Shown: one piece after another, positions 3,054 to 53,966 of the stretch
Position numbering within the stretch: position 1 is the first letter of the stretch
Layout of the letters: every line of letters starts with the position of its first letter
DNA from: an uncultured Candidatus Saccharibacteria bacterium
GTDB lineage: Bacteria > Patescibacteriota > Minisyncoccia > UBA6257 > Colwellbacteraceae
DNA length: 64,000 nucleotides
Direction of reading: 5' to 3'
NCBI GenBank assembly: GCA_964643135.1
Contig: CAZXPC010000003.1
Coordinates: forward strand, 6,152 to 70,151
The notes under the pieces: generated by a model
Database searches by the model: none
What the model was told of the DNA's origin: nothing
What the model saw: the letters and a program-made list of their open reading frames with translations, nothing else
Made by a program: the position numbers and the translations under genes

Positions 3054-4712
3054 ATGCCCATTGATGATTCTGATGTTACGCTAAAACTTAAACGCATTCA
3101 GCTTGAGGCGGAAGAACGCGAAGCCGAAAGGATAGCGGCTTCATACAACCTGCCCTATCTTTCAAGCGGTTCTTTGTCGCCTCAGCTAGAGGCTTTGCGG
3201 ATGGTTTCCGAAACAGAGGCGCGGAACGCCAAAGCGGCGGCTATAAAGTTACAAAAAAAGGAATTGGTTTTGGTTGTAGAAAATCCCAAACTAGCGGCCA
3301 CGGCTCAATTGATTGAACGGCTCCGCAATTCCGGCTATTTGATTAATTTATATGCAGTTTCTTTTTCAACTCTCAAGAGGCTTTGGGAGCATTACAGCGA
3401 GATTATTGAAACGCCGCACGAAATCACTTCGGAGATCGAAATAAGCAGTTCTGATTTTGCGAAAATCAACGGAGATATCAAAAACCTTGATAGTATCAGG
3501 GGGTACTGCGCGAAATTCGCTGGACTTTCCACGACCGATCTTCTTTCATTTATTTTCGGCGCCGCTATTGTTATCGGCGCGTCTGATGTTCACTTCGAGG
3601 CTGAGGAATCTTTGGTCAGGCTGAGGCTGCGAGTCGACGGAATTCTAAACGATATCTGCGAATTTCCGCTTGAGAATTATAAACAAGTTTTAAATCGAAT
3701 AAAATTATTGGCCGGTCTAAAGATCAACATTACCGACAGTCCGCAAGACGGCCGATTTACGATTAAGGTTGGCAAAACAGAAGTCGAAATACGCGCGGCT
3801 ATAAGCCCGTCTGAATTCGGTGAAGTTATTGTCATGAGAATTTTGAACCCGAATGAGATTGTTTTGAGTTTGGGAGAATTAGGACTCCGAAAAGACGACG
3901 AAGACGTTGCTCTCCGCGAAATTAAAAAACCAAATGGCATGATATTGGTTACCGGACCAACCGGCAGCGGTAAAACGACTACGCTCTACGCCTTTTTGAA
4001 GAAAGTTTCTAATCCGGAAATAAAAGTGATTACAATCGAAGATCCGATTGAGTATCGATTGGTTGGCATTGAGCAAACTCAAGTTGAGGCTAAGAGTGGC
4101 TACACTTTTGCGTCCGGCCTGCGATCTATTCTAAGGCAAGATCCGGACGTTATCTTAGTCGGTGAAATCAGGGATTTCGAAACGGCTGAAATTGCTATGA
4201 ATGCGTCGCTAACCGGGCACCTCGTTTTCTCAACTTTACACACCAATAATTCAGTAGGTGCTATTCCGAGGCTGATTGATCTGGGGATCAAGCCTTCGAT
4301 TATCGGCCCGGCGCTGACACTCATAATCGCGCAAAGGTTGGTGCGGAAAATTTGCCCATTTTGCCGCAAGCAATCCGAGACGACTCGGGATTTGAGCGCT
4401 AAAATAGCGAAGCTTAAAAAGACTTTGCCGACCAAGGTTCAGAATTATAACCCCACTGATGTGGTTTACGACGCGGTTGGCTGTGACAAGTGCCACGGCG
4501 GGTATAAGGGGCGAATTGGCATTTACGAGCTTTTGGAATTAACCGGAGAATACGAATCATTAATAAATAAAGATGCCACTGAATATTCAATTCGTGAATT
4601 TGCCTTGAAAAAAGGATTGGTTGAAATGCAAAAAGATGGAATTTTGAAAGTTTTGGCGGGGATGACAACGTTTGAAGAGGTGGAGAAGGCCACCGGTCCT
4701 CTCGAGTGGTAG
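3054..4712 (+). CDS. pilB: Type IV pilus assembly / type II secretion ATPase (PilB/GspE family)
   Basis: Walker A is VTGPTGSGKTTTLYAF. Asp-box and His-box regions are present. The C-terminus has a tetracysteine zinc motif (CPFC...CDKC). Length is 552 aa. Confidence 0.9.
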   Translation: MPIDDSDVTLKLKRIQLEAEEREAERIAASYNLPYLSSGSLSPQLEALRMVSETEARNAKAAAIKLQKKELVLVVENPKLAATAQLIERLRNSGYLINLYAVSFSTLKRLWEHYSEIIETPHEITSEIEISSSDFAKINGDIKNLDSIRGYCAKFAGLSTTDLLSFIFGAAIVIGASDVHFEAEESLVRLRLRVDGILNDICEFPLENYKQVLNRIKLLAGLKINITDSPQDGRFTIKVGKTEVEIRAAISPSEFGEVIVMRILNPNEIVLSLGELGLRKDDEDVALREIKKPNGMILVTGPTGSGKTTTLYAFLKKVSNPEIKVITIEDPIEYRLVGIEQTQVEAKSGYTFASGLRSILRQDPDVILVGEIRDFETAEIAMNASLTGHLVFSTLHTNNSVGAIPRLIDLGIKPSIIGPALTLIIAQRLVRKICPFCRKQSETTRDLSAKIAKLKKTLPTKVQNYNPTDVVYDAVGCDKCHGGYKGRIGIYELLELTGEYESLINKDATEYSIREFALKKGLVEMQKDGILKVLAGMTTFEEVEKATGPLEW

Positions 4713-5960: not shown

Positions 5961-7406
5961 CTATTTAATCCCATGCGCCTGCGATTCCCGGTAACCCCCT
6001 TCGGTGATTCTTATAAATTCTGCATTTTTTTGGAAAGTATCGATATCCTTAGCGCCTAAGTAACTCATGCTCGATCGAAAGCCGGCGAGCGTGTCTTTTA
6101 AAATAACGGCAACGTCGCCTTTGAATGGCACTTTACCCGACTTTCCTTCCGGGGCGCGGTAAAGACCATCAGAAGTTTTGTGTTCTTTGCGGAGTTTGTC
6201 TTCGAAGCTCTCGCGTGAGGCTCCACCGCGATAAATTTTATAAGCTTGGCCGGAATCCATTATATACTCGCCTGGTGATTCTTTGGTGCCGGAGATAATA
6301 CTGCCAACCATAACTGTGTTAGCGCCGGCAGCGATAGCTTTGGCTAAGTCTCCTGAGTTCCTTATGCCGCCGTCTCCTATGATTGGTACACCATATTTTT
6401 TAGCGGCGGCGGCGCAGAGTTGAATGGCGGTTAGCTGCGGCACGCCGACGCCGGTTACGACCCTAGTGATGCAAGTTGCCCCCGGGCCGATGCCAATCTT
6501 AACGCAATCAGCACCGGCTTTGATCAAATCAACTGTGCCCTGTGGCGTAGCGACATTGCCGGCCACCAGTTCAACGTGCTTAAGGTTTTTTCTAATAGTT
6601 TTCAGAGCATTAATGGCTCGTTCATTGTGCCCGTGCGCCACGTCCATGACTAGAACGTCGCAGCCGGCGTCAACAAGCAGTCCGGCGCGTTCTAAATAGT
6701 CTTCGTTGACGCCCACTGCCGCGCCAACTAGCAAGTGCCCGCTTTTGTCCTTGGCCGCATCGGGATAGAGCGTCTTTTTAACAATGTCGGTGGCGGTAAT
6801 TAGGCCTTTTAAGATACCCTTTTTGTCGACTAAGGGCAGTTTCTCAATCTTATTTCTGCGGAGCACTAGTTTGGCCTCATCTATCTTGATGCCCATTGGT
6901 GCAGTCACAACTTTCTTAGTCATGACGTCACCTATCTTTTTATTCAGATCAGTTTCAAAGCTCACATCGCGGTGAGTTATAATACCGATTACTCGTTTTT
7001 TATCATCGACAACGATTAGGCCCGAGACATTATTCTTGTCAGTAAATTTTTTAACGTCGAGGAGAGTTTTGTCGCTCGTAATTGTGTGCGGATTTTCGAT
7101 GATTACTCCTTCAGACCGCTTAACTTTCTCAACTTCGCGAGCCTGATCAATCTTATCCATAAAACGATGGATCACGCCCAGCCCTCCCATGTGTGCAAAA
7201 GCTTTAGCCATTTCGGACTCAGTCACTGTATCCATGTTCGCACTAACGAGCGGAATATTCAGATCAATATTGCGGCTAAATTTAGTTTTGGTTGAGGCAT
7301 CGCGGCGGGAATAGACATCAGATCGGCGCGGAACCAAAAGAACGTCATCAAATGTTAAGAATTCTTTTGATGAGTTTATGTTGCGATCTGAGAAGTAGTT
7401 CGACAT
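5961..7406 (-). CDS. guaB: Inosine-5'-monophosphate dehydrogenase
   Basis: [34 protein letters not shown] marks the catalytic Cys loop. There is a CBS-pair insertion. Length is 481 aa. Confidence 0.95.
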
Positions 7407-15743: not shown

Positions 15744-16208
15744 ATGATCCTTAGTAATGAATATATCAGGGGTTTAATTGATGGAGAAGGCTGCTTTTCC
15801 TTTTGTACTATCCCTAGTTCTAAGAAGTTAGAAGGCAAGTTGATCAGGCAGAAAATCCCGGCTTTCTTACTAAATATGCATGTCAGAGATAAAGATTTGG
15901 TCCAAGGCGTTAGAGATCATTTGGGCTTGCGCAATAGGGTTTACGAATATAGGAGTACCCCATTACACGGGCATAATAAAAGTTATTTGAGAGGGAATAA
16001 GGCAGTGCTAATAGTTAGAGATCTCGGCCAGCTTAAAAATAAAATAGTACCTTTTTTCTACGGTAGGCTGAAAGGACATAAGGGGGAACAATTTAATATT
16101 TGGTTAGACAAGATAGGAAGCGACCCAGAAGTGGTTGATGACTATCGGTTGATATACCGTCTTCACAAGTCGGGTTGGTTTGAAAATAACCCAAAATATT
16201 CAGACTGA
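15744..16208 (+). CDS. Free-standing single-motif LAGLIDADG homing endonuclease
   Basis: YIRGLIDGEGCFSF is the LAGLIDADG motif. The downstream KAVLIVRDLGQLKNKIVPFFYGRLKGHKGEQFNIW matches the LAGLIDADG_3 core. Length is 154 aa. Confidence 0.8.
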   Translation: MILSNEYIRGLIDGEGCFSFCTIPSSKKLEGKLIRQKIPAFLLNMHVRDKDLVQGVRDHLGLRNRVYEYRSTPLHGHNKSYLRGNKAVLIVRDLGQLKNKIVPFFYGRLKGHKGEQFNIWLDKIGSDPEVVDDYRLIYRLHKSGWFENNPKYSD

Positions 16209-16816: not shown

Positions 16817-19264
16817 TTGAAGTTGTATATGGTCATTTTACTAATTTCATTAATTTTAGCGGCGGCCGTTTTGGCGGGAGTCGTGTTTTTCTTGGTCGGC
16901 AAGAAAAGATTGGTGGCCATGGTCACGAGATCGCTGAACTCGAGATTAATTTCGGTTTCGTTGCCCAAGAATTTGGACAAAGAACAGAAGCCAGACAAAG
17001 AAATAATCGCGCCGATGGAACAGTTCTATAGCGCGCTCGGAAGCTTGCACCTCAAAAAAGAGAAATGGTGGGCGCCGAAGCAATACATTGTTTTTGAACT
17101 GGCGGTGCCTCATATCGGGGAACAGATTTCTTTCTATGTTTCAGCCAGAAGCCGGATCATGGCTGATATTCAAAAACAGATCTACGCTTATTTCCCGAAA
17201 GCACAGATTAGCGAGATTGAAGATTATAATATTTTTAACCCGACCGGAGTTTCGGTTGGATCATTTGTGAAATTAGAGCACTCGAGCTCTTTGCCGGTCA
17301 GAACCTACAAGGAGATGGAGACCGATCCGCTCCGCGAAATTACCAATGCCCTTTCAAAATTAAAAGAAGTGGGGGAGGGCGCGGCTTTGCAGCTGGTTCT
17401 CAGACCTGCGAATAAGAGAAATCGGAGCAAGGGAATGGCGATCGAGCATCTTCTACGCCAAGGTAAAACCGTGGAAGGAGCGATGAAAGAAGTCGAAAGA
17501 GGCATTGTTTCAGGCGTCTTAAGAGAACTTTTTTACCCGACCAAGAAAGAAGAGCCCAAGACGGTGCAGCCGCCGATAAAAGTTTCGGAAGATCTAATCA
17601 AGCAGGTTGAGAATAAAATCTCTAAGCCCCAATTCGATGTGAATATCCGTTTAGCGGCCTCAGCTAAAGAGTATCGTGAGGCGAATGACATTTTGCGTCA
17701 GCTCCAGAACGCCTTTTCGCAGTTTAATAATCCCGCCCTGAATCAGTTCGATATTATTGAGCCCAACCCGCGCTCTTTAAAGAAACTGTTCTTTAATTTT
17801 TCATATCGGATGTTCGATGAAAAGCAAAAAATGATCTTGTCTTCAGATGAATTGACCGGTATTTATCATTTTCCGAACACCAAACTTGAGACGCCGAGAA
17901 TTAGAGAGACCAAGTCTAAAGTTTCGGAACCGCCGGCAGAATTGCCGCGCGAAGGCCTTTTGATCGGTAAAAATATTTATCGCGGCGAGGATCGGCCCAT
18001 ATACATGGCCAAAGACGACCGGCGTCGGCACCTCTATATAATCGGACAAACTGGAACCGGTAAGAGTAAGGAGATTCAGAGCATGATTATCCAGGACATT
18101 AGGAATGGCGAAGGCGTCGGGCTCATTGATCCGCACGGCGACATCGCTGAAGATGTTTTAGGCTTTATACCGGAGGAAAGGTACAAAGACGTTGTTTTGA
18201 TCGATCCTTCTAACCTGGCTATGCCGGTTGGGCTTAATATGCTCGAGTTCGACCCGAAATTCCCTGAGCAAAAAACTTTTGTGATTAACGAGCTCATGAA
18301 TATTTTTGACAAGCTCTACGATTTGAAAGCGACCGGCGGGCCGATCTTTGAGCAATATACCCGCAATGCTTTGCAACTCTTAATGGAATACCCGGAGCGG
18401 GGATACACAATTCTGGAAATCCCGCGCGTTTTGGCTGACAAGGAATTCCGAAAAGGCTTGCTCGCAACATGTACTAATATTTTGGTTAAAGATTTCTGGG
18501 AAAAAGAGGCTGAAAAAGCTGGCGGGGAAGCTTCGCTCCAGAATTTGGTTCCTTACATTACTTCCAAATTCAACGTCTTCTTGGGCAACGACTATATCCG
18601 GCCGATTATCGCCCAGTCCAAGAGCACGATCCACTTCCGCGAAATCATGGATGAGAAAAAAATCTTGATTGTTAATTTGACGAAAGGACGGTTGGGAGAT
18701 ATCAACGCCTCGCTTTTGGGAATGATCGTAATCGGCAAGATATTAAAGGCGGCCTTTTCACGAGTCGACATTAAAGATGAGAATTTGAGGAAAGATCTTT
18801 ATTTGTATATCGACGAGTTCCAAAATTTTGCCACCGATTCGATTGCCACCATTTTATCCGAAGCCCGCAAGTACAGGTTAGATTTGATTATTGGCCACCA
18901 ATTTATTGAGCAACTAAAGAAAGAGATTAAAGATGCGGTTTTCGGTAACGTCGGCAATATCATGGCCCTCCGGGTTGGCGCAACCGATGCAGAATTTCTG
19001 GCCAAGCAATTTGAGCCGGTCTTCGATCAGAACGATTTGGTTAATATTGATAACTATCACGCTTATGTGAAACTTTTGATAAATGGAAAGACCACGAAGC
19101 CTTTCTCGATTGAATTTTATCCTCCGGAAAAGGGCGTTACAGGGTTGGCGGACAATATTAGGAAGCTCTCATCTCTTAAATACGGCCGCGAAAGGGCGGT
19201 AGTCGAGAAAGAAATTATGCTTCGCCTGAGACCCGAGTATAAACCGGCGGAGCCGGGGGTCTAA
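16817..19264 (+). CDS. Membrane-anchored FtsK/HerA-superfamily ATPase of the type IV secretion type (VirB4/VirD4/TraG-like)
   Basis: N-terminal TM helix. Walker A HLYIIGQTGTGKSK at about aa 410, followed by IDPHGD. Walker B LYLYIDEFQNF. Length is 815 aa. Confidence 0.7.
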   Translation: MKLYMVILLISLILAAAVLAGVVFFLVGKKRLVAMVTRSLNSRLISVSLPKNLDKEQKPDKEIIAPMEQFYSALGSLHLKKEKWWAPKQYIVFELAVPHIGEQISFYVSARSRIMADIQKQIYAYFPKAQISEIEDYNIFNPTGVSVGSFVKLEHSSSLPVRTYKEMETDPLREITNALSKLKEVGEGAALQLVLRPANKRNRSKGMAIEHLLRQGKTVEGAMKEVERGIVSGVLRELFYPTKKEEPKTVQPPIKVSEDLIKQVENKISKPQFDVNIRLAASAKEYREANDILRQLQNAFSQFNNPALNQFDIIEPNPRSLKKLFFNFSYRMFDEKQKMILSSDELTGIYHFPNTKLETPRIRETKSKVSEPPAELPREGLLIGKNIYRGEDRPIYMAKDDRRRHLYIIGQTGTGKSKEIQSMIIQDIRNGEGVGLIDPHGDIAEDVLGFIPEERYKDVVLIDPSNLAMPVGLNMLEFDPKFPEQKTFVINELMNIFDKLYDLKATGGPIFEQYTRNALQLLMEYPERGYTILEIPRVLADKEFRKGLLATCTNILVKDFWEKEAEKAGGEASLQNLVPYITSKFNVFLGNDYIRPIIAQSKSTIHFREIMDEKKILIVNLTKGRLGDINASLLGMIVIGKILKAAFSRVDIKDENLRKDLYLYIDEFQNFATDSIATILSEARKYRLDLIIGHQFIEQLKKEIKDAVFGNVGNIMALRVGATDAEFLAKQFEPVFDQNDLVNIDNYHAYVKLLINGKTTKPFSIEFYPPEKGVTGLADNIRKLSSLKYGRERAVVEKEIMLRLRPEYKPAEPGV

Positions 19265-25799: not shown

Positions 25800-25870
25800 G
25801 GGGGTATAGTTTAGTGGTAAAACTTTCGTCTTATACACGAATAAGCTTGGTTCGATTCCAAGTACCCCCA
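25800..25870 (+). tRNA. tRNA-Ile (anticodon TAT, AUA-decoding)
   Basis: Hand-folded. Acceptor GGGGGTA/TACCCCC. Anticodon stem TTCGT/ACGAA, loop CTTATAC. T-arm CTTGG-TTCGATT-CCAAG. Confidence 0.7.
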
Positions 25871-25892
25871 CTGCTCGCATCAAATCCTAATT

Positions 25893-33072: not shown

Positions 33073-33372
33073 CCGCCGCCTCCAACCACAGCCTCTTCGG
33101 GTAACATAATAAATCTGCTGAACCTCGCCCTACCCTCATCCCATTCCGGGAAACACAATAATTTCTTGCTAGAAATTTTGTTTTTGCTCACCCGTCTTCA
33201 CGGGCTTGCGCAGATTCCCTTCATGGAACAAGGTCGGGCTTATCTATATAGCCAGAAGAAATCCAATCTATCCTGATGGGATTCGCGGAGCCGTGTAGGC
33301 GAGCGGATACAAAATCCCTAGCAAGGGATTTATGTTGTTCCCTGAAGGGTAGATTGGATTTCGGAGGCGGGA
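33073..33372. repeat. Copy B of the modular intergenic repeat. A full-length element of about 300 bp, equivalent to 49164-49445 in inverted orientation, with its central core equal to copy A
   Basis: The ends (CCGCCTCCAACCACAGCCTCTTCGGG... and ...GGGATTCGCGGAGCCG.GT.GGCGAGC..CCCTGAAGGGTAGAT.GGATTTCGGAGG) match the reverse complement of 49164-49445. The centre, 33124-33243, matches the reverse complement of 5823-5941. Confidence 0.8.
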
Positions 33373-33411: not shown

Positions 33412-34701
33412 ATGCAAATGACCAAACCTCAAATCGCTATCGTTGGCACAGTTGCGGCGATCTTCCTTCTTCTCGGCTTAGCTTTGATTTTCGGACGCAA
33501 AAGCGGTCCGGTTGCGCCTCCGCCTAAAACTCAAATTAATTTCTGGGGTTTTAAAGCCGATGAAAGCGCCTGGAAAAATGTCATTGATGCTTATTCAGCA
33601 GCCAATCCCACTGTTAATGTGACCTTAACCTCGGTTGACCCCGCTAATTACGAAGCGACCTTGATCGACAGCCTGGCCGCCGGAACGGGCCCCGACGTTT
33701 TTATGTTCTACTATGACTGGCTCACCAAGCACAAAAATAAAATTTTGCCGGCCCCAGCCACCATTACGCCGGATATGATCAGCAATCTTTTCCCCAAGGC
33801 GGTGGCTGAAGATTTTGTCTCCGACAGCCAAGTTTATGCCCTGCCGGTTTCTATAAACACACTCGCGCTGGCGTATAACCGCGATTATTTTGATGCTAAG
33901 GGAGTGCCTAATCCGCCCGCGAGTTGGGAAGACATAAAAAGCATGATTCCGAAACTTCGCGAATTAAATAACGGCAAAATTGTGAAGTCGGCCATTTCGA
34001 TTGGCGGAAGCGAGGACGGCCAGGGTCACATAAAAAACGCCGACGATATCCTAACTCTGATGTTGCTGCAAAACGGCGTTAATATCTTGGGCAATCCGCA
34101 GAACGGCGGCGGCATCGAGTCCCAGCCGGGGATCGATACGCTGAATTCATATTTAGATTTCTCGAATCCCTCATCAAAGAATTTCGCTTTCTATAGCGGC
34201 ACGACCGAAAATTCGCTTGACGCTTTTGCGAACGGCGACACGGCTATGGTTTTCGTTTACCCGCAGGATTTGCAGTATATCAAGTCTAAAAATCCGGTAC
34301 TGAACTATAAGGTCGTTCCGATGCTGCAATTGAATCCGAATAAGGCAGTTAATTTGACCGATTATTGGGGGCTAGCTGTTTCAAATCGAACCGCCAGCCA
34401 TGCTTCGGCCTGGAGTTTTATTTCCTTTGCCGCCATGAATGAGGCGATGGCTAAAACTTACGCTTCAACGTCGCAAAATCAGCCGGCTTTGCGGTCGGTT
34501 ATCGCGAGTTTCAACCCGGATCCGATTTTGGGCGTATTTGCGCCGCAGGCCCTGAACGCGGTGAGCTTCCCGAAAAATAACCGCGACGGTTTTCGCGCCA
34601 TTATCGACAATATGATAGAATCATCTTTGAAGGATCGCTCTAACGTTGCCGCCGCAGCCGCTACGGCTGATGCAGGGCTGAAGAGCGCGATTCAAAAATA
34701 G
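33412..34701 (+). CDS. Extracellular solute-binding protein (ABC transporter SBP family 1), orphan
   Basis: N-terminal TM/signal segment. SBP_bac_1-like pattern (INFWGF...LAAGTGPDVF). No permease or ATPase genes adjacent. Confidence 0.75.
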   Translation: MQMTKPQIAIVGTVAAIFLLLGLALIFGRKSGPVAPPPKTQINFWGFKADESAWKNVIDAYSAANPTVNVTLTSVDPANYEATLIDSLAAGTGPDVFMFYYDWLTKHKNKILPAPATITPDMISNLFPKAVAEDFVSDSQVYALPVSINTLALAYNRDYFDAKGVPNPPASWEDIKSMIPKLRELNNGKIVKSAISIGGSEDGQGHIKNADDILTLMLLQNGVNILGNPQNGGGIESQPGIDTLNSYLDFSNPSSKNFAFYSGTTENSLDAFANGDTAMVFVYPQDLQYIKSKNPVLNYKVVPMLQLNPNKAVNLTDYWGLAVSNRTASHASAWSFISFAAMNEAMAKTYASTSQNQPALRSVIASFNPDPILGVFAPQALNAVSFPKNNRDGFRAIIDNMIESSLKDRSNVAAAAATADAGLKSAIQK

Positions 34702-34702
34702 A

Positions 34703-35119
34703 GTGATGTTAAACTTTCTAATCAATATTGCTCACGCTTTTGATCAGCCCACCGGGAGCATAGTTACTTGCGGCCCGGCTGATGCGTCGGGTCATTATCC
34801 CAACGGCAATTACACCGGGCCTTGTGACGCCGGTGCTTTTTGGGGGCTCGTTAATACACTTATAAATTACGCAATTTGGATCGGTATTGTGGCGGTTGGC
34901 TTGTCGGTAGTATTCGCCGGGGTGATGTTTTTGACTTCCGCCGGCTCGGGCGAGAAGACCAGCGCTGGGAAACGCGCCGTAACAGCCGCGGTTGTCGGCC
35001 TAGTTATAACTTTGACCGCTTGGATAATTGTTAATACAATTATATCGTTCCTGTTGCCGAACTGTACTGGGCATTGGAATATATTCAATAATGGGACCAG
35101 CAGCCTAACATGCTCTTAA
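34703..35119 (+). CDS. TrbC/VirB2-type T4SS pilin-like protein, paralog 1
   Basis: Two hydrophobic helices separated by the short polar loop TSAGSGEKTSAGKR. Cys-containing N- and C-terminal tails. Same architecture as the next three ORFs. Confidence 0.6.
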   Translation: MMLNFLINIAHAFDQPTGSIVTCGPADASGHYPNGNYTGPCDAGAFWGLVNTLINYAIWIGIVAVGLSVVFAGVMFLTSAGSGEKTSAGKRAVTAAVVGLVITLTAWIIVNTIISFLLPNCTGHWNIFNNGTSSLTCS

Positions 35120-35541
35120 AATTAATAAATAAAACTAGATATCTTTGGCTGGTCTTAGTCGGCTGGGCAGTCCTGCCGGCAGCCTTGGCCGCGGGGACAA
35201 CTTTTTGCGACCCCATCGCGGGCTGCAACGGAACTTCCACGACTATTCCGGATCTTTTAGTCAAGATGGCCAGCTACCTGACTATTCTGGCTATTCCGGT
35301 TTTGGCGATCATGATTTTGTACGGAGCTTTTACCATCATGACTTCCGAAGGCAACAGCGAGCATTATAAAAAGGGGCAGAGGATTATTGTTTACGCTATC
35401 GTTGGTTTCGTGATCATCGCGATCGGCGGCGGAATAGGATATATCATTAATGATATTTTGACCGGCGGGCCGGCGGCTAACCCTTGCAGCCAATTCGTAG
35501 TCGGATCGCCGCAATATAATAGCTGCATAGTGGCTCATTAA
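35110..35541 (+). CDS. TrbC/VirB2-type T4SS pilin-like protein, paralog 2
   Basis: Signal peptide ending AALAAG. Helix-loop(TSEGNSEHYKKGQR)-helix core. Cys pairs at both ends. Confidence 0.6.
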   Translation: MLLKLINKTRYLWLVLVGWAVLPAALAAGTTFCDPIAGCNGTSTTIPDLLVKMASYLTILAIPVLAIMILYGAFTIMTSEGNSEHYKKGQRIIVYAIVGFVIIAIGGGIGYIINDILTGGPAANPCSQFVVGSPQYNSCIVAH

Positions 35542-35559
35542 GGAATCAAAGCTAAACTT

Positions 35560-35925
35560 ATGAAAAAATATTTAATTATTCTGAGTCTGCTGGCCGCACT
35601 TCTGATTGGTTTCGCCCCCAGCGCCCTAGCGGCTGACTGCGAGTATCCGGCGACCCAGGTTATTAACGGACAAACGGTGCCGTGTCCCATCAGGCATCTT
35701 TCTGGCTTCGTAGATTTTCTGACCACTATTTTCAATATCTTTTTCGCGCTAATGATTATTGCCGCCTCTTTCACTTTTGTTTATGCGGCCTTTCTCTACA
35801 TCACTTCCGAAGGCATGATGGAAGAAATCAGGAAGGTTAAAAGAATGCTGATCTACGCTATGATCGCCCTCGTTATTGCCGTTTTCGCCTGGGGGTTGCC
35901 GAGAGTTATTATAAGCTTTCTCTAG
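35560..35925 (+). CDS. TrbC/VirB2-type T4SS pilin-like protein, paralog 3
   Basis: Signal peptide ...PSALAADC. Helix-loop(TSEGMMEEIRKVKR)-helix. C-terminus WGLPRVIISFL. Confidence 0.65.
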   Translation: MKKYLIILSLLAALLIGFAPSALAADCEYPATQVINGQTVPCPIRHLSGFVDFLTTIFNIFFALMIIAASFTFVYAAFLYITSEGMMEEIRKVKRMLIYAMIALVIAVFAWGLPRVIISFL

Positions 35926-36050
35926 GTTGTCCTATATCTATTTCTTTACGGCCCAAGTGACTTATGCTAATATTTCAAGCAATGGAAAGGTCGAGTTTTA
36001 AAGATTATTTATCCGGACTTTTTAGATTAAAACAGATTAAAAAAGATAAA

Positions 36051-36413
36051 ATGAAGAAATTAATACTTTTGTCAGTTTTAGTGTTGGGACTTTTGGCGGT
36101 TGCGGCTGCACCTAGCGCTTTGGCGGCGGTTGGCTGTCCTTTGCCTCCTTGCGGTTCTGACGTCAGCCCTACGACTGGACCAGCTTTTACCGACTTGATC
36201 CAGACTATTTTTAACGTAGTTTTCGGCATCTTGGTAATAGTGGCAGCATTCTTTTTGCTTTTTGCAGCTTTTGAATACATCACTGCTCAGGGCGAACAGG
36301 AGAAAATCCACAAGGCTAAGAACACAATTGTCTACGCGATTGTCGCTCTAGTTGTGGCTATTCTAGCCTGGGGTCTTCCGAGAGTTGTGCTCAGCTTCTT
36401 CGGCGTTCACTAA
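36051..36413 (+). CDS. TrbC/VirB2-type T4SS pilin-like protein, paralog 4
   Basis: Signal peptide ...PSALAAVGC. Helix-loop(TAQGEQEKIHKAKN)-helix. C-terminus WGLPRVVLSFF, near-identical to paralog 3. The ORF-track start at 35964 is an upstream extension. Confidence 0.65.
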   Translation: MKKLILLSVLVLGLLAVAAAPSALAAVGCPLPPCGSDVSPTTGPAFTDLIQTIFNVVFGILVIVAAFFLLFAAFEYITAQGEQEKIHKAKNTIVYAIVALVVAILAWGLPRVVLSFFGVH

Positions 36414-36435
36414 TATATCAGCGAAAGTTTCAGAA

Positions 36436-36470
36436 AACTCCCCGAGATTCGGGGAGTTTTTGGTTGCTTT
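36436..36470 (+). terminator. Rho-independent terminator (CTCCCCGA-GATT-TCGGGGAG followed by TTTTTGGTT) closing the pilin array
   Basis: 8-bp stem plus a U-tract. The hairpin core is the same as the terminator at 14390-14415. Confidence 0.75.
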
Positions 36471-36523: not shown

Positions 36524-37286
36524 TACGATCGTGAACATAGTGTATCTTCTCGAGTTTCTGGCTAATTTATTTTGAGCGGCTGTTTTTCACTGCAGATTCC
36601 TTGCCTGCCGGTTCTTCATTTTCTATTTACTATATTTATATATTATCTTCACGATCGTGAAGATAATATATGTGTATGAGGGGAGATCTAAAGAATAAAA
36701 TTCTAGAAAATATTTTGGAGACGGCCATTTCGCCCGCAGAACTATTTGAGGCTGTGATCAGGGCCGGCTATGGTGCATCTGTGCGTGGAATTGATTGGCA
36801 GCTGGAGAAGGTTAGAGCTAGAAGGCAAGATGTTTTAAATATCTTGGCCAAGAAGAAAAGTTTCTACAATACTCTCCAGAGGCTAAAGAGGGATGGTTTG
36901 ATTGAAAGATCGGGCAAGGGCTGGATAGCGACTAAATTAGGTCGAGGGATCTTTACGGTCTCTGATAACAGGCCTTCCCGATCGGCATATCCATCGACAG
37001 AAAAGACCAGCTATACAACGATTATCATATTCGATGTGCCAGAAACGCATCGATACAAGCGCGATTGGCTGAGAGATAGCCTTAAAAATATGGGTTTCAA
37101 GATGGTTCAAAAGAGTGTTTGGTCGGCTCAAGTTAAGATTCCACGCGCTTTTATAGATGATTTAGAAAGTTTTGCTCTTATTGACTGCGTCGATATATTT
37201 CAGGCGACCAAGCTTGGCTCGCTGGCTAAATCCTAAAAAAACTTAAATGATTAAGATCAATATATATTATTCACGATCGTGAGAAA
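36524..37286. promoter_or_regulatory. Three copies of the palindromic operator TTCACGATCGTGAA bracketing the gene 36670-37236
   Basis: Sites at about 36526-36539 and about 37272-37285, plus the extended perfect 22-bp palindrome TATCTTCACGATCGTGAAGATA at 36645-36666. The extended copy overlaps a GATAAT -10-like hexamer 4 bp before the ATG. Confidence 0.7.
36670..37236 (+). CDS. Winged-helix (PaaX-N-like) DNA-binding domain fused to a C-terminal Cas2-like domain; putative autoregulator
   Basis: N-terminal half (..SFYNTLQRLKRDGLIERSGKGWIATKLGRG) looks like a wHTH. C-terminal half (TIIIFDVPETHRYKRDWLRDSLKNMGFKMVQKSVWSAQVKIPRAFIDDLESFALIDCVDIF) follows the Cas2 core pattern [YF]D[VI]..R.R..L...G.R.Q.SV[FW]...D.V.I[FY]. 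Palindromic sites flank the gene. Confidence 0.6.
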   Translation: MCMRGDLKNKILENILETAISPAELFEAVIRAGYGASVRGIDWQLEKVRARRQDVLNILAKKKSFYNTLQRLKRDGLIERSGKGWIATKLGRGIFTVSDNRPSRSAYPSTEKTSYTTIIIFDVPETHRYKRDWLRDSLKNMGFKMVQKSVWSAQVKIPRAFIDDLESFALIDCVDIFQATKLGSLAKS

Positions 37287-39045: not shown

Positions 39046-39257
39046 TTCAAGTGTCCTCCCGTTATCAAGGTGCTGGCTTAACAGAGTCTATACTCCCGTT
39101 AGGGAGCTAGACTAGCTAGCACCTCAAACGAGTGTGGGACTATGTAAACATACATACGCTATTCTTGTCAAGTCCCCAGGAAACTTAGTGGCCTTTATAG
39201 GCCTTGACAAGACATTGGAGATCTGTTAATCTAAACCGTCAAAATATAAATAAGACT

Positions 39258-41387
39258 ATGATGATAAACCCAAAAAACAAGCAGACCGCCGGTTTCGGAG
39301 CGATGCAAGTCGTAATTGTAGTCGGCGTGGTGGCCGTTCTGGCCTTGTTATTCTTCGGTTTGCCGGGCGGAGTTAAGGATTTCTTCGCTAAATTAAAGGG
39401 TGGGACCGCTTCGATCTCCAGCTTTGGTGATTTTCAGAAAGACGCCAACAATAATATCAGCATCGACAGCGTGGCGGACACGATGGTTAAGGATTTGATG
39501 TCGGTTCAGACTATGGCTAAGGCGGAAACTGGGGACAAGAAAGACGGCATCTGTTTCAAGAATCCGGCTGCCGAAACCGATTTCTATAATATAGTTTCTA
39601 ACATCTCCGGCACCGACGCTTGCGATAGCGCGGCTTCGATTGTCAATGTCGTTTCTTTGCCGAGCGGGATCAGTATTGTAGATCCAGCCACTGGCAGCAA
39701 TAAATCTATTGTTTTCCAGAAAGACGGCACCTCTGTTGCCTCAACCGATCAAACTATTAAAATTGCGTCTTCAACTGAAACTCGAATTGTGACGGTTACG
39801 CCGTCCGGCAACGCAACTTTCAGCGTCGGCGCTCCTAGCACGGCTTCAGCCGGGGCTTCATCGGGATCGGGCGGGACCACAACTATCATCAGGACAGTAA
39901 CCGCGGATAATACCGGCCAGATTAATGCTCTTAGCAATGTGGCGAACGGCTTGGCCAATGTTTTGGGTTCGATTAGGACCCTGCAGAATCAAAACACTGT
40001 TGTCACTGTCCCGGTTCCTGTTCAGGTCCCTGTGCCGGTCAATGTTACTTCGGGCGCTCCTTCTCAGCCTTCGAATCTTTACGCTCAAGGAAGCTACGGC
40101 TATATTGCATTGAATTGGACGGTTTCAGCCGGCGCTATCTCGACCTATAAAATTTATCGCAGCCAATATCCCGGCCAGGAGTCGTTCTTAGCCTCGGTTG
40201 GAGCGATTAATTATTACGCCGATTACAGCGTGGCCGCCGGTTCGACCTACTACTACAAAGTTACGGCCGTCAATACAGCAGGGCAGGAGAGTCCGCTTTC
40301 AAACGAAGCGTACTCGGCCGCTTATGTTCAGAGTCCTGTTACTTATTACACACCCGTTCCCGTTCCGGCTCCGGTTCCGCAGCAGCCTCAGATTTTTCAA
40401 CCATCGGTGCCGACTATTGTTTCGGCTGCCTATTACCCGGGCAACGGGGTTGTCTTGAACTGGCTCGCTCCACAGTCTAACGGTAATTCTTATATCGTCG
40501 GCTACAGGGTTTATCGCAATATTTCGGTGGTAAATTCCAGCTTGATTTACGATTCAACTTCTCAGAGCACAACCTACACCGATTCAAGCCTGGCGCCGAA
40601 CACTAACTATTGCTACCAGATTAGCGCCAAAAATCAGCAGTACGAAAGCCCACGGTCAGCCGCGCAATGTGTTTATACTTATGTAGCTCAGACCCCATCA
40701 CCTACTCCTAGCCCGAGCCCAGCTCCTCAGACCCCGACTTACTACTCTCCTTATCCGTCATCGACGCCTCCTGCGACTTACTACTACACTCCCGGAACTT
40801 CTACGAACCAGACGCCTACTTACTATTCTCCGACTTCGTACTCGAACCAGCCGGCTACTTATTACACTACTAGCGGCTCTTCAACACCGGCGGCCACTTA
40901 CTACACAACCGCTCCGAACGGAACTCAAGCTGCTACTTACTATACGACTAGCGGTTCGGGTACTCCGTCGGCAACCTACTACACGACTTCTTCGACATCG
41001 GGTACGCCATTAGGAACCTATTACGCAACGTCAGGATCTACTAGCGGCACTCCATCGGCCACTTACTACACAACTAGTGGTTCTTCAACCCAGGCAGGCA
41101 CGTATTACGGTACCCAAACTTCGACCACTCCAGGAGCGACTTATTACACAACCAGCGGCAGCACCAGCTCATCGCCGGCCACTTATTACTCAACTGGCTC
41201 TACCGCTACTCCATCAGCAACTTATTATTCGACAGCTAGCGGTTCGGGTACGCCGAGCGCTACTTATTACACTACTAGCGGCTCTTCAACGCCGGCTGGA
41301 ACTTATTACACAACCGCTCCGAGCGGAACTCAAGCCGCGACTTATTACAGTTCTTCATCAACTCCATCGGCGACTTACTACCCCTAA
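39258..41387 (+). CDS. Large secreted/surface protein with two fibronectin type III-like domains and a C-terminal Tyr/Thr/Ser-rich tandem-repeat region (ATYYTTSGSSTP-like, about 20 units)
   Basis: N-terminus KQTAGFGAMQVVIVVGVVAVLALLFFGL is a signal anchor, possibly pilin-like. FN3-like blocks (..LNWTVSAG..YKIYRS..YYYKVTAVNTAGQES.. and ..LNWLAPQSNG..YRVYRN..YCYQISAKN..). Imperfect tandem repeats at about 40740-41390. The TTGACA-17-TAATCT promoter is at 39204-39232. The ORF-track start at 39204 is an upstream TTG extension. Confidence 0.7.
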   Translation: MMINPKNKQTAGFGAMQVVIVVGVVAVLALLFFGLPGGVKDFFAKLKGGTASISSFGDFQKDANNNISIDSVADTMVKDLMSVQTMAKAETGDKKDGICFKNPAAETDFYNIVSNISGTDACDSAASIVNVVSLPSGISIVDPATGSNKSIVFQKDGTSVASTDQTIKIASSTETRIVTVTPSGNATFSVGAPSTASAGASSGSGGTTTIIRTVTADNTGQINALSNVANGLANVLGSIRTLQNQNTVVTVPVPVQVPVPVNVTSGAPSQPSNLYAQGSYGYIALNWTVSAGAISTYKIYRSQYPGQESFLASVGAINYYADYSVAAGSTYYYKVTAVNTAGQESPLSNEAYSAAYVQSPVTYYTPVPVPAPVPQQPQIFQPSVPTIVSAAYYPGNGVVLNWLAPQSNGNSYIVGYRVYRNISVVNSSLIYDSTSQSTTYTDSSLAPNTNYCYQISAKNQQYESPRSAAQCVYTYVAQTPSPTPSPSPAPQTPTYYSPYPSSTPPATYYYTPGTSTNQTPTYYSPTSYSNQPATYYTTSGSSTPAATYYTTAPNGTQAATYYTTSGSGTPSATYYTTSSTSGTPLGTYYATSGSTSGTPSATYYTTSGSSTQAGTYYGTQTSTTPGATYYTTSGSTSSSPATYYSTGSTATPSATYYSTASGSGTPSATYYTTSGSSTPAGTYYTTAPSGTQAATYYSSSSTPSATYYP

Positions 41388-52689: not shown

Positions 52690-52772
52690 GGGAATGTTGG
52701 GGTGACAACAACTTGACGACCAAATCCAAACCGAAAGAGGGAATCTTCGATTCGCTCTTGAGGAGCGAGCCG

Positions 52773-53966
52773 ATGTTCAGAAACAAGGAAGTCCTGCGGT
52801 CTAGCTACATGCCTGACGAGCTGCCGCACCGGACGACCCAGATCAATCAGCTCGCGGCGATCCTCGTTGGGGCGCTCAAGGGTGAAACGCCCTCGAACGT
52901 CCTTATCTACGGGCAGTCGGGAACTGGGAAAACCGCGGTGGCGCGCTTCGTGGGCAACGAGCTGCAGAAGACGGGGAAGGAGAAGGACCAGACGGTCTTT
53001 TTCGTCTATATCAACTGCCAGCTCGTCGACACGCAGTATCGAGTCCTCACGCACATCGCGAACCATTTCATCGAGAACTGGGACGACCGCATCCCGTTCA
53101 CGGGCTGGCCGACGGACGAGGTCTACAACAAGCTGAAGCAGAAGATCGACGAGAAGGGAGGCGCCTGCGTCATCGTCTTGGACGAAATCGACAAACTCGT
53201 TTCCAAGGCCGGCGACGACATCCTCTACGCACTCTTGTCGATCAACAGCGACCTGAAGAGCGCGAAGGTGTCCGTGATCGGCATCTCGAACGACCTGAAG
53301 TTCACTGAGCTTCTCGACCCGCGCGTGAAGTCGCGCCTGGGCGAGGAGGAGGTGATCTTCCCTTCGTACGACGCCGTGGAGCTCCAGGACATCATGAAAC
53401 AGCGCGCAGAGATGGCGTTTCAGGGAGGTTCGCTGGAAGACAGCGTCATGCCTCTTTGCGCCGTTTTGGCCGCACAGGAGCATGGCGATGCTCGTCGAGC
53501 GCTGGACCTTCTTCGCGTCGCCGGCGAATTGGCGGAGCGGGAGGGCCAGAAGTCAGTGAGTGAGAAGTACGTGCGGAAGGCTCAGAACAAGATCGAGGGC
53601 GACCGCGTGACCGAGGTCGTGCGCACGCTTCCCACGCAGAGCAAGATCGTGCTTCTCAGTGCGATCTTCGGCGAAGAATCGGGAACGAAGAGTCTCACGA
53701 CCGGCGAGGTGTACGACACGTACCGCGAACTTTGTGAGGAAGCCCGCCAGGACATCCTCACGCAGCGCCGCGTTACGGACCTCATCTCGGAACTCGACAT
53801 GCTCGGAATCTTCCGGGCGCGGGTTGTCTCCAAGGGGCGTTACGGACGCACCAAGGAGATCGAGCTGGCCATTCCGGTTGAAGAGACCAAGGCTGTGCTC
53901 TGCGAGGATCCTGTCGTGGGGCCAGTCATGGGGTTCCGCCCAAAGAAGCAATCGAGGCTCTTCTAG
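52773..53966 (+). CDS. Orc1/Cdc6-family AAA+ ATPase (archaeal/eukaryotic-type replication initiator homolog), high-GC islet
   Basis: N-terminal MFRNKEVLRSSYMPDELPHRTTQINQL follows the Orc1/Cdc6 IF.N.E.L...Y.P..LPHR..Q pattern. Walker A LIYGQSGTGKTAVA. Walker B VIVLDEIDKL. Sensor-1 ISN. C-terminal winged helix. About 60% GC against about 40-45% in the flanks. An alternative TTG start at 52713 (ORF-track start) would add 20 aa. Confidence 0.8.
   Translation: MFRNKEVLRSSYMPDELPHRTTQINQLAAILVGALKGETPSNVLIYGQSGTGKTAVARFVGNELQKTGKEKDQTVFFVYINCQLVDTQYRVLTHIANHFIENWDDRIPFTGWPTDEVYNKLKQKIDEKGGACVIVLDEIDKLVSKAGDDILYALLSINSDLKSAKVSVIGISNDLKFTELLDPRVKSRLGEEEVIFPSYDAVELQDIMKQRAEMAFQGGSLEDSVMPLCAVLAAQEHGDARRALDLLRVAGELAEREGQKSVSEKYVRKAQNKIEGDRVTEVVRTLPTQSKIVLLSAIFGEESGTKSLTTGEVYDTYRELCEEARQDILTQRRVTDLISELDMLGIFRARVVSKGRYGRTKEIELAIPVEETKAVLCEDPVVGPVMGFRPKKQSRLF

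Follow-up and report, generated by a model that had tools for sequence, protein, structure and literature searches.

What kind of system is encoded by four small, adjacent open reading frames (ORFs) that follow a solute-binding protein gene in the chromosome of an uncultured bacterium? The four ORFs lie on the plus strand, within positions 34703–36413, of a 64-kb stretch of contig CAZXPC010000003.1 that was analysed as a whole (the window, whose numbering is used for all positions), and are referred to here as the paralogs P1 to P4, in gene order. A sequence-only reading of this DNA had described them as a tandem array of pilins of the type IV secretion system (T4SS), and the four consecutive small ORFs are found at the places that it gave. 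Our analysis identifies P1–P4 as predicted VirB2-like pilins of the Patescibacteria family PF18895. We regard it as probable that their genes form a five-gene operon with that of the solute-binding protein (SBP), and that the pilins are inserted into the membrane by Sec/YidC and polymerized by a T4SS encoded elsewhere.

Pilin family membership and predicted architecture

The proposed membership in the T4SS pilin family was borne out by the curated Pfam profile PF18895 (T4SS_pilin), whose gathering cutoff of 26.6 bits is passed by all four proteins (28.6, 30.9, 34.3 and 50.9 bits for P1 to P4, respectively). P4 also exceeds the cutoff of 40 bits for NCBIfam NF045849, the Mbov_0395 family pilin-like conjugal transfer protein, with 49.2 bits; P1–P3 stay below it at 22.3, 24.1 and 29.5 bits, with matches that span the whole 80-residue model. 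The paralogs are divergent: identity to P4 is 46% for P3 and 30% and 25% for the other two. A hidden Markov model (HMM) built from P1–P4 matches only those four among the 718 ORFs of the window.

A search of a large protein collection with a profile made from the four paralogs returned 70 relatives, all of which (70/70) carry PF18895 and 34 of which also carry PF04956, the TrbC/VirB2 family; some of the relatives are named 'pilin' at NCBI. Another 253 homologues were found with a profile of the class-1 pilins, the subunit class of P1 described below. The class-1 alignment was needed to reach these relatives, as a single-sequence homologue search with P1 retrieved P1 itself only.

By hydropathy, all four proteins have two long hydrophobic segments, preceded by a leader in P2–P4 and by a very short one in P1. 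AlphaFold models were made for P1 and P4 only, and each contains two helices, at residues 42–77 and 82–116 in P1 (pLDDT 75) and at residues 43–78 and 83–116 in P4 (pLDDT 74). Hydropathy and models together support a predicted two-helix hairpin for P1–P4 rather than a single-pass anchor, in agreement with the two hydrophobic helices and short charged loop noted earlier, and the loop sequences quoted at that time are exact. Each inter-helix loop holds 3–4 Lys/Arg residues and the tails 0–1, and because these residues are concentrated in the loops and scarce in the tails, a topology with the loop inside fits the proteins. Pilins of the type IV pilus (T4P) were rejected as an identity for P1–P4 by inspection, since the proteins contain no G/(F/M)-x-x-x-E motif (first slash, cleavage site) and have two helices, not one. 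A sequence profile search against PDB chains retrieved no pilin.

Proposed link to a type IV secretion system

The PF18895 family is tied to T4SS machinery, since homologous arrays in Saccharimonadia, which comprise 6–8 genes and have no SBP gene, lie beside VirB4, TraC-like, PrgI and TrbL_3 genes. Adjacency of pilin and virB4 genes is not required, because only 1,135 of 1,948 assemblies show it in the survey of Quinonero-Coronel et al. (2025, Microbial Genomics; PMC12102498). The window array was compared with 13 related loci of the Parcubacteria type. Species-representative genomes, when scanned, supplied eight of them, metagenome look-ups two and class-1 proteins a further two; the remaining one is a near-duplicate. 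These loci were recovered with motifs from the window array, in the genome scan with a narrow class-3 alignment, which biases the set toward orthologous arrays and one broad clade.

Several results weigh against the T4SS pilin assignment. The canonical TrbC/VirB2 profile is not reached: P4 is the sole match to PF04956, at 12.8 bits (E 0.14) versus a cutoff of 27.9. Alignment of the family profile with five annotated plasmid VirB2/TrbC proteins by hhalign is in register across both helices and is weak (probability 21%, E 0.001), and with the class-1 profile the probability is 2.8%. Fold searches return generic helical hairpins only, as is expected for a bare hairpin. Each protein had been credited with a signal peptide, which fits P2, P3 and P4, where AxA sites are visible (LAA/G, LAA/D and LAA/V, respectively; slash, cleavage site), but not for P1, which lacks a canonical signal peptide and has about 11 residues (MLNFLINIAHA) ahead of its mature part. 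VirB4, VirB6, PrgI and TrsD genes were found neither in the 64-kb window nor within 8–10 kb of the array in the 13 related loci, and the predicted link of the window array to a T4SS is one of homology alone. Finally, a 2025 review (PMC12857230) treats the Patescibacterial pilus as a possible rather than an observed structure, which might be a conduit through which the cell takes up material from its host.

Two ATPase genes elsewhere in the window had been put forward as possible machinery. The first, at 16817–19264, had been called VirB4/VirD4-like; the VirD4-like part of this description stands, as the protein matches type IV coupling protein (T4CP) families, and the VirB4 part was rejected, as these families are not VirB4. 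NCBIfam TraD and VirD4-like families are matched as well, all far below their cutoffs. A link of this T4CP homologue to the pilins is hypothetical, and T4CP genes of Patescibacteria are mostly unlinked to virB4 and may have been repurposed (PMC12102498). The second, a PilB-type ATPase at 3054–4712, was confirmed by a T2SSE match and belongs to a separate system, either a type IV pilus or a type II secretion system (T2SS).

Operon organization

The last nucleotide of the SBP gene is 34701. P1 begins 1–4 nt downstream, either at a GTG at 34703 (138 aa) or at the ATG used in Table 1 (137 aa). P1 and P2 overlap by 10 nt, the gap between P2 and P3 is 18 nt and that between P3 and P4 is 125 nt. For P4, a 149-aa reading from 35964 is possible; its orthologues begin with MKK, and the 120-aa form is the one called by NCBI. 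The strong terminator that had been noted after the array was recovered as a 13-bp stem with a T-run (dG −23.7 kcal/mol, z −4.65), and none of 200 shuffled sequences folds as well. From the overlap and short gaps between the genes and from the terminator after the array, we infer a five-gene operon, SBP-P1-P2-P3-P4. A weaker hairpin between gyrA and the SBP gene, at 33312–33331, is a possible upstream operon boundary.

Table 1. Features of the predicted pilin operon and of the coupling-protein homologue (positions in the 64-kb window)
Feature	Position	Strand	Details
Weak terminator-like hairpin 3′ of gyrA and 5′ of the SBP gene	33312..33331	+	8-bp stem, T-rich tail; from a consensus scan only
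Membrane-anchored family-1 SBP (MalE-like, distant)	33412..34701	+	First gene of the inferred operon
Pilin paralog 1 (P1, class 1)	34706..35119	+	Short leader, N-tail Cys pair, hairpin, C-tail with W and Cys pair
Pilin paralog 2 (P2, class 2)	35110..35541	+	143 aa; lineage-specific C-terminal Cys-pair extension
Pilin paralog 3 (P3, class 3)	35560..35925	+	121 aa; YAAFLYxTS motif
Pilin paralog 4 (P4, class 3)	36051..36413	+	120 aa; best match to the family
P3-P4 spacer	35926..36050	+	Possible internal promoter
Intrinsic terminator closing the operon	36433..36461	+	13-bp stem, 3-nt loop, T-run
VirD4/TraD-type coupling-protein (T4CP) homologue	16817..19264	+	Pfam DUF87, TrwB_AAD_bind, TraG-D_C; 15 kb from the array

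By eye, the P3-P4 spacer contains a weak promoter-like site (TTTACG-N17-TAATAT, 35945–35973). The site was not flagged by a promoter scan, whose site count was no higher than in shuffled sequence, and folding of the spacer for a processing or attenuator structure gave nothing significant (z +0.81). The position of this spacer recurs among the relatives: in 9/11 loci the largest intra-array gap (51–245 nt) lies before the last pilin gene, and in the loci L007 and L012 the array is interrupted further 5′ by a larger gap, of about 580 nt.

The array sequence is free of mismatches in the assemblies of two separate sequencing runs; in an exact look-up, P2 retrieved contigs carrying the array and P4 retrieved none. 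The window represents unremarkable chromosomal DNA from a bacterium with a small genome and encodes RuvABC, FtsH, ribosomal protein S1, GyrA, PNPase, NusA, ClpP, TyrRS and ten tRNAs. The array's neighbours are gyrA, the SBP gene, a PaaX/Cas2-like gene, tRNA-Leu and xerC, among which there is no relaxase, no VirB4 and no gene of an integrative and conjugative element (ICE). GyrA of the window is 77% identical to that of Candidatus Colwellbacteria RIFCSPLOWO2_01_FULL_48_10 (Parcubacteria group), and the organism is, as judged by sequence, a Colwellbacteria-like Patescibacterium of the Parcubacteria group.

The solute-binding protein gene

The first gene of the predicted operon encodes a protein with Pfam matches to SBP_bac_8 (1e-29) and SBP_bac_1 (2e-25) and with distant PDB matches to sugar- and maltodextrin-binding proteins. 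Its N terminus reads as a hydrophobic anchor without a lipobox Cys. The gene had been described as an orphan standing 2 bp before the array; the closeness was confirmed, but "orphan" was not, as an SBP_bac_1/8 homologue lies directly 5′ of the pilin array in 13/13 related loci. The gap to the first pilin gene was measured in 11 loci and ranges from −20 to +18 nt in all but one of them. Because of this recurrence, the SBP gene appears not to be incidental to the array. Neither the text of PMC12102498, as searched, nor a wider literature search yielded a mention of an SBP or gyrA link to pilins.

The linkage invites a different explanation for the whole locus, in which hairpins of the pilin family have been repurposed and belong, with the co-transcribed SBP, to a membrane module. 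They might, for instance, anchor an SBP-dependent device for uptake or sensing or serve as its accessory subunits. The invariable position of the SBP gene is consistent with this, as are the detachment of the array from any VirB4 gene and the lack of an ABC permease or ATPase gene among the scanned ORFs of the window. The SBP and the pilins also evolve at similar, fast rates: compared with locus L004, the closest relative, the pilins are 52–67% identical, the SBP 53% and GyrA 88%, and the array evolves fast relative to gyrA. However, the order MBL-fold gene, gyrA, SBP, pilins and, further on, xerC is kept in most of the 13 loci, so that part of the linkage may be no more than conserved synteny across one broad clade; all 13 loci are of the Parcubacteria type and were fished with motifs of the window array. 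Moreover, the Saccharimonadia members of the family lie beside VirB4 and without an SBP gene, and pilin fusions in relatives with a faint match to SLT_3, a family described from T4SS loci of the candidate phyla radiation (CPR), point to a T4SS. We consider a repurposed SBP module an unlikely account of the locus.

Subunit classes in the related loci

Arrays in the related loci contain 3–7 pilin genes. When their hairpin cores are clustered, the pilins group according to their place in the array rather than the genome they come from. In 11/11 loci the first pilin gene is of class 1, which includes P1; class 2 is the next pilin gene and includes P2, which clusters with the class-2 genes of eight other loci; class 3 comprises the remaining, last genes and includes both P3, 52% identical to the third gene of L004, and P4, 67% identical to the fourth. 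Class 1 has a conserved C-terminal W...C tail, and most class-2 proteins have NPLG before helix 1. Because the classes cluster by position, the duplications predate the split of genomes whose GyrA proteins are only 57–66% identical, and the paralogs are three old classes in fixed order and not a recent diversification.

The class-1 leader is 10–13 residues long and ends in A-Q or A-H-A in the window (34706–34740), L003, L009 and L010; a full-length signal peptide is present on the class-1 pilins of L004, L008, L011, L012 and L013. Class-2 and class-3 pilins are fused in L009 (4775–5545) and L010 (7059–7871), giving proteins of 256–270 aa with two PF18895 domains and a Cys-rich C-tail. Elsewhere, the second gene of the array encodes a hairpin joined to a Cys-rich C-terminal domain of 150–200 aa (L012:5900–6754, L007:1354–1950, L016:8494–9444 and L017:8528–9412). 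One of the hairpin fusions has a faint match to the lysozyme-like SLT_3 family (PF18896, 17.7 bits, below cutoff), and in L016 and L017 the hairpin-fusion gene is followed by a gene for a conserved 173-aa protein without a family match. The window array contains neither a hairpin-fusion gene nor the 173-aa gene.

Cysteines and variable tails

Cys pairs had been reported in the N-tails of all four paralogs and in the C-tails of P1 and P2, and the positions are exact: C23/C41 and C121/C137 in P1 (138-aa numbering), C33/C39 and C126/C139 in P2, C27/C42 in P3 and C29/C34 in P4. The N-tail pair is common across the family. The C-terminal Cys of class 1 is invariant in 11 orthologues; in class 2, C-tail Cys residues occur in P2 only, 1 of 11 proteins. 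Among 115 class-1 proteins, which are not phylogenetically independent, the numbers of N-tail and C-tail Cys residues are 3/1 in 84, 3/5 in seven, 2/2 in six (the type to which P1 belongs) and 2/0 in seven, and the sum of the two is even in 110. If all outward-facing Cys residues are oxidized, an odd/odd pattern would require at least one tail-to-tail bridge. The AlphaFold model of P1 places residue 22 beside residue 38, which suggests a disulfide within the N-tail. An N-to-C disulfide staple was rejected for P1 of the window, as its 2 + 2 pattern needs none and the model hints at an N-tail bridge. A VKOR gene (DsbB-like, disulfide-forming) was seen in a Saccharimonadia genome, about 1.4 kb from an eight-gene pilin array (L014:12769–13383), and may be relevant to the oxidation of pilin Cys pairs; no VKOR gene was seen in the window.

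A more ambitious reading, which we hold to be improbable, treats gyrA, SBP and pilins of Parcubacteria-type genomes as a functional unit, in which the membrane-anchored, sugar-type SBP would be co-produced with a three-class heteromeric VirB2-like fibre and act with it, for example in the capture of host-derived molecules at the fibre or through it, and in which class-1 pilins would be locked by an N-to-C tail disulfide. This bridge would be the chemical counterpart of the head-to-tail cyclisation that TrbC and the T-pilin undergo. Most class-1 homologues do have three N-tail Cys residues and one C-tail Cys; P1 is the 2 + 2 variant, for which the model points to within-tail bridges.

Compared with L004, the hairpin cores are 60–78% identical and align almost without gaps, and the tails are 29–58% identical with 7–53 gap columns, so most of the variation in the predicted outward-facing tails consists of insertions and deletions. 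Since even the nearest orthologues are only 52–67% identical, saturation of synonymous sites is likely. The N-tails had been called hypervariable, a pattern taken to suggest diversifying, surface-exposed tips. Alignments with relatives support the variability of the tails; the paralogs themselves are ancient, position-fixed classes and not a recently diversifying set.

Tails that differ strongly between paralogs as well as between orthologues would suit interchangeable variants, of which one is used at a time, in antigenic or host-range variation as proposed for VirB2 of Bartonella and Anaplasma, and a reading of this kind is offered in PMC12102498. For the window array we consider it very unlikely, since the cores cluster by position with class 1 first, class 2 next and class 3 last, the duplications are older than the divergence of the genomes concerned, the class-specific motifs are kept, no repeat or cassette structure is present and the two sequencing runs are identical. 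Chance hydrophobic frames, or small membrane proteins of unrelated kinds, for example holins, to which the shortness and hydrophobicity of P1–P4 and their many weak, meaningless Pfam matches might point, can practically be dismissed, being refuted by the profile evidence (the PF18895 cutoff passed by four of four, and the two sets of profile-search homologues) and by synteny of the orthologues in 13 loci, and the genes are called in both the NCBI and the Logan assemblies.

A model for the pilin operon

The reading that we prefer remains an SBP-P1-P2-P3-P4 operon for VirB2-like pilins that serve a T4SS encoded elsewhere. Its steps from membrane insertion onward to pilus assembly follow by analogy. 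Insertion of the hairpins would proceed via Sec/YidC and leave the Lys/Arg-rich loop in the cytoplasm and the two ends outside the cell, a topology proposed because of what is known of VirB2/TraA pilins and because of the positive-inside rule. The leaders of P2–P4 would be cut at their AxA sites. A VirB4-powered T4SS of monoderm type would then extract the pilins from the membrane into a pilus-like fibre or conduit, on whose outer surface the variable, Cys-bridged tails could meet the host cell.

The fixed order of the classes suggests a division of labour among the subunits, which seems more likely than a set of interchangeable antigenic variants. P4, which has its own spacer and matches the family best, may be the major subunit. 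A minor or initiating role may fall to class 1, whose C-terminal W...C tail is conserved.

Relationship to known systems

The window array is a further instance of a kind already published. Quinonero-Coronel et al. used PF18895 and PF04956 to search 3,035 Patescibacteria genomes and found 441 VirB2-like pilin arrays of 2–11 genes in 383 assemblies, with a mean identity of 25% and a maximum of 54% (PMC12102498). The window array falls within their definition of a VirB2 array, namely at least two pilin genes in tandem or one gene apart with low identity. With these arrays, with that of Candidatus Southlakia and with the 'Sec secreted array' of TM7x it shares PF18895, tandem genes on one strand, low identity between paralogs (25–46% to P4), a leader and hairpin, a chromosomal location and the lack of a relaxase nearby. 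The six-pilin array and the T4SS are essential in Candidatus Southlakia epibionticum ML1 (Wang et al. 2023, PMC10633639), a result also treated in PMC12857230, and in cultured Paceibacterales the genes for T4SS pilins rank among the most strongly expressed of those with unknown function (PMC10936435). The setting is what differs: the Saccharimonadia arrays that we examined adjoin virB4, PrgI and VirB6 genes, whereas the window array stands after the SBP gene, 3′ of gyrA, in a block that is conserved across Colwellbacteria- and Liptonbacteria-type genomes.

The TrbC/VirB2 proteins of diderm T4SSs (PF04956; Agrobacterium VirB2 and RP4 TrbC) have a leader, two helices, a short loop and about 70–100 mature residues, as do the window proteins, and the 34 relatives that match both PF18895 and PF04956 form a bridge between the two families. 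Unlike them, the window proteins have a loop that is about seven residues longer and rich in Lys and Glu, carry N-tail Cys pairs and come from a monoderm organism. The Mbov_0395/MMCAP2_0565 family of Mycoplasma ICEs (NF045849), whose cutoff P4 passes and P1–P3 do not, is found, like the window array, in wall-poor or monoderm cells with machinery of the MPF-FATA type, yet the window has no ICE genes. MPF-FATA systems are stated to lack VirB2 homologues (PMC12102498), and the NF045849 match hints at a pilin-like hairpin in Tenericutes ICEs of this class. Several divergent VirB2-type genes also stand in a row in Bartonella and Anaplasma, for which surface variation has been proposed (cited in PMC12102498). 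Those genes belong to canonical diderm VirB systems and lie in virB loci, whereas the window array consists of ancient classes in fixed order.

Other features of the window

Just 3′ of the pilin terminator, an ORF on the plus strand (36670–37236) encodes a 188-aa protein whose central domain is PaaX-type and Cas2-like (PaaX_M, 1.6e-12; TIGR01573 cas2, 26.6 bits versus a cutoff of 24.5). L007 and L008 also have homologues in the vicinity of their pilin arrays, and no CRISPR array or other cas gene was seen. Further downstream, a 51–55% GC stretch contains an ORF (39204–41387, plus strand) for a 727-aa protein with a GspH-like (pseudopilin) domain and fibronectin-III domains. This protein is conserved 3′ of the pilin array in L004 and L006 and is probably either an adhesin or a large minor pilin of a type IV pilus.

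A third ORF on the plus strand, at 52713–53966, has the full architecture of an archaeal/eukaryotic-type Cdc6/Orc1 protein, which is unusual for a bacterium: an AAA+ domain, Cdc6_lid (6e-28) and a Cdc6_C winged helix (1.5e-30). It lies in a 54% GC stretch beside a cluster of eight tRNAs, whereas the GC content of the genome is otherwise about 46%, and this stretch may be a foreign island. At 15744–16208 (plus strand), a free-standing LAGLIDADG endonuclease ORF adjoins tRNA-Val, and in L004 a LAGLIDADG_3 ORF (6031–6666) directly follows the pilin array. The window also contains a tRNA-Ile with the anticodon TAT (25800–25871); most bacteria decode AUA with a lysidine-modified CAT tRNA instead.

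Significance

Patescibacteria depend on host cells, and a T4SS with a pilin array is essential in the one genetically tractable species. The window locus establishes no new principle and is an ordinary example with some added detail: the SBP partner is conserved, the subunits fall into three fixed classes and the array is detached from the ATPase genes. The Parcubacteria-type pilin set is an ordered one of three old subunit classes, lies away from the ATPase genes and is in every one of the 13 related loci paired with a fast-evolving SBP. The ordered classes and the SBP pairing offer handles for expression, pull-down and structural work on how these fibres would be built and what they may bind.

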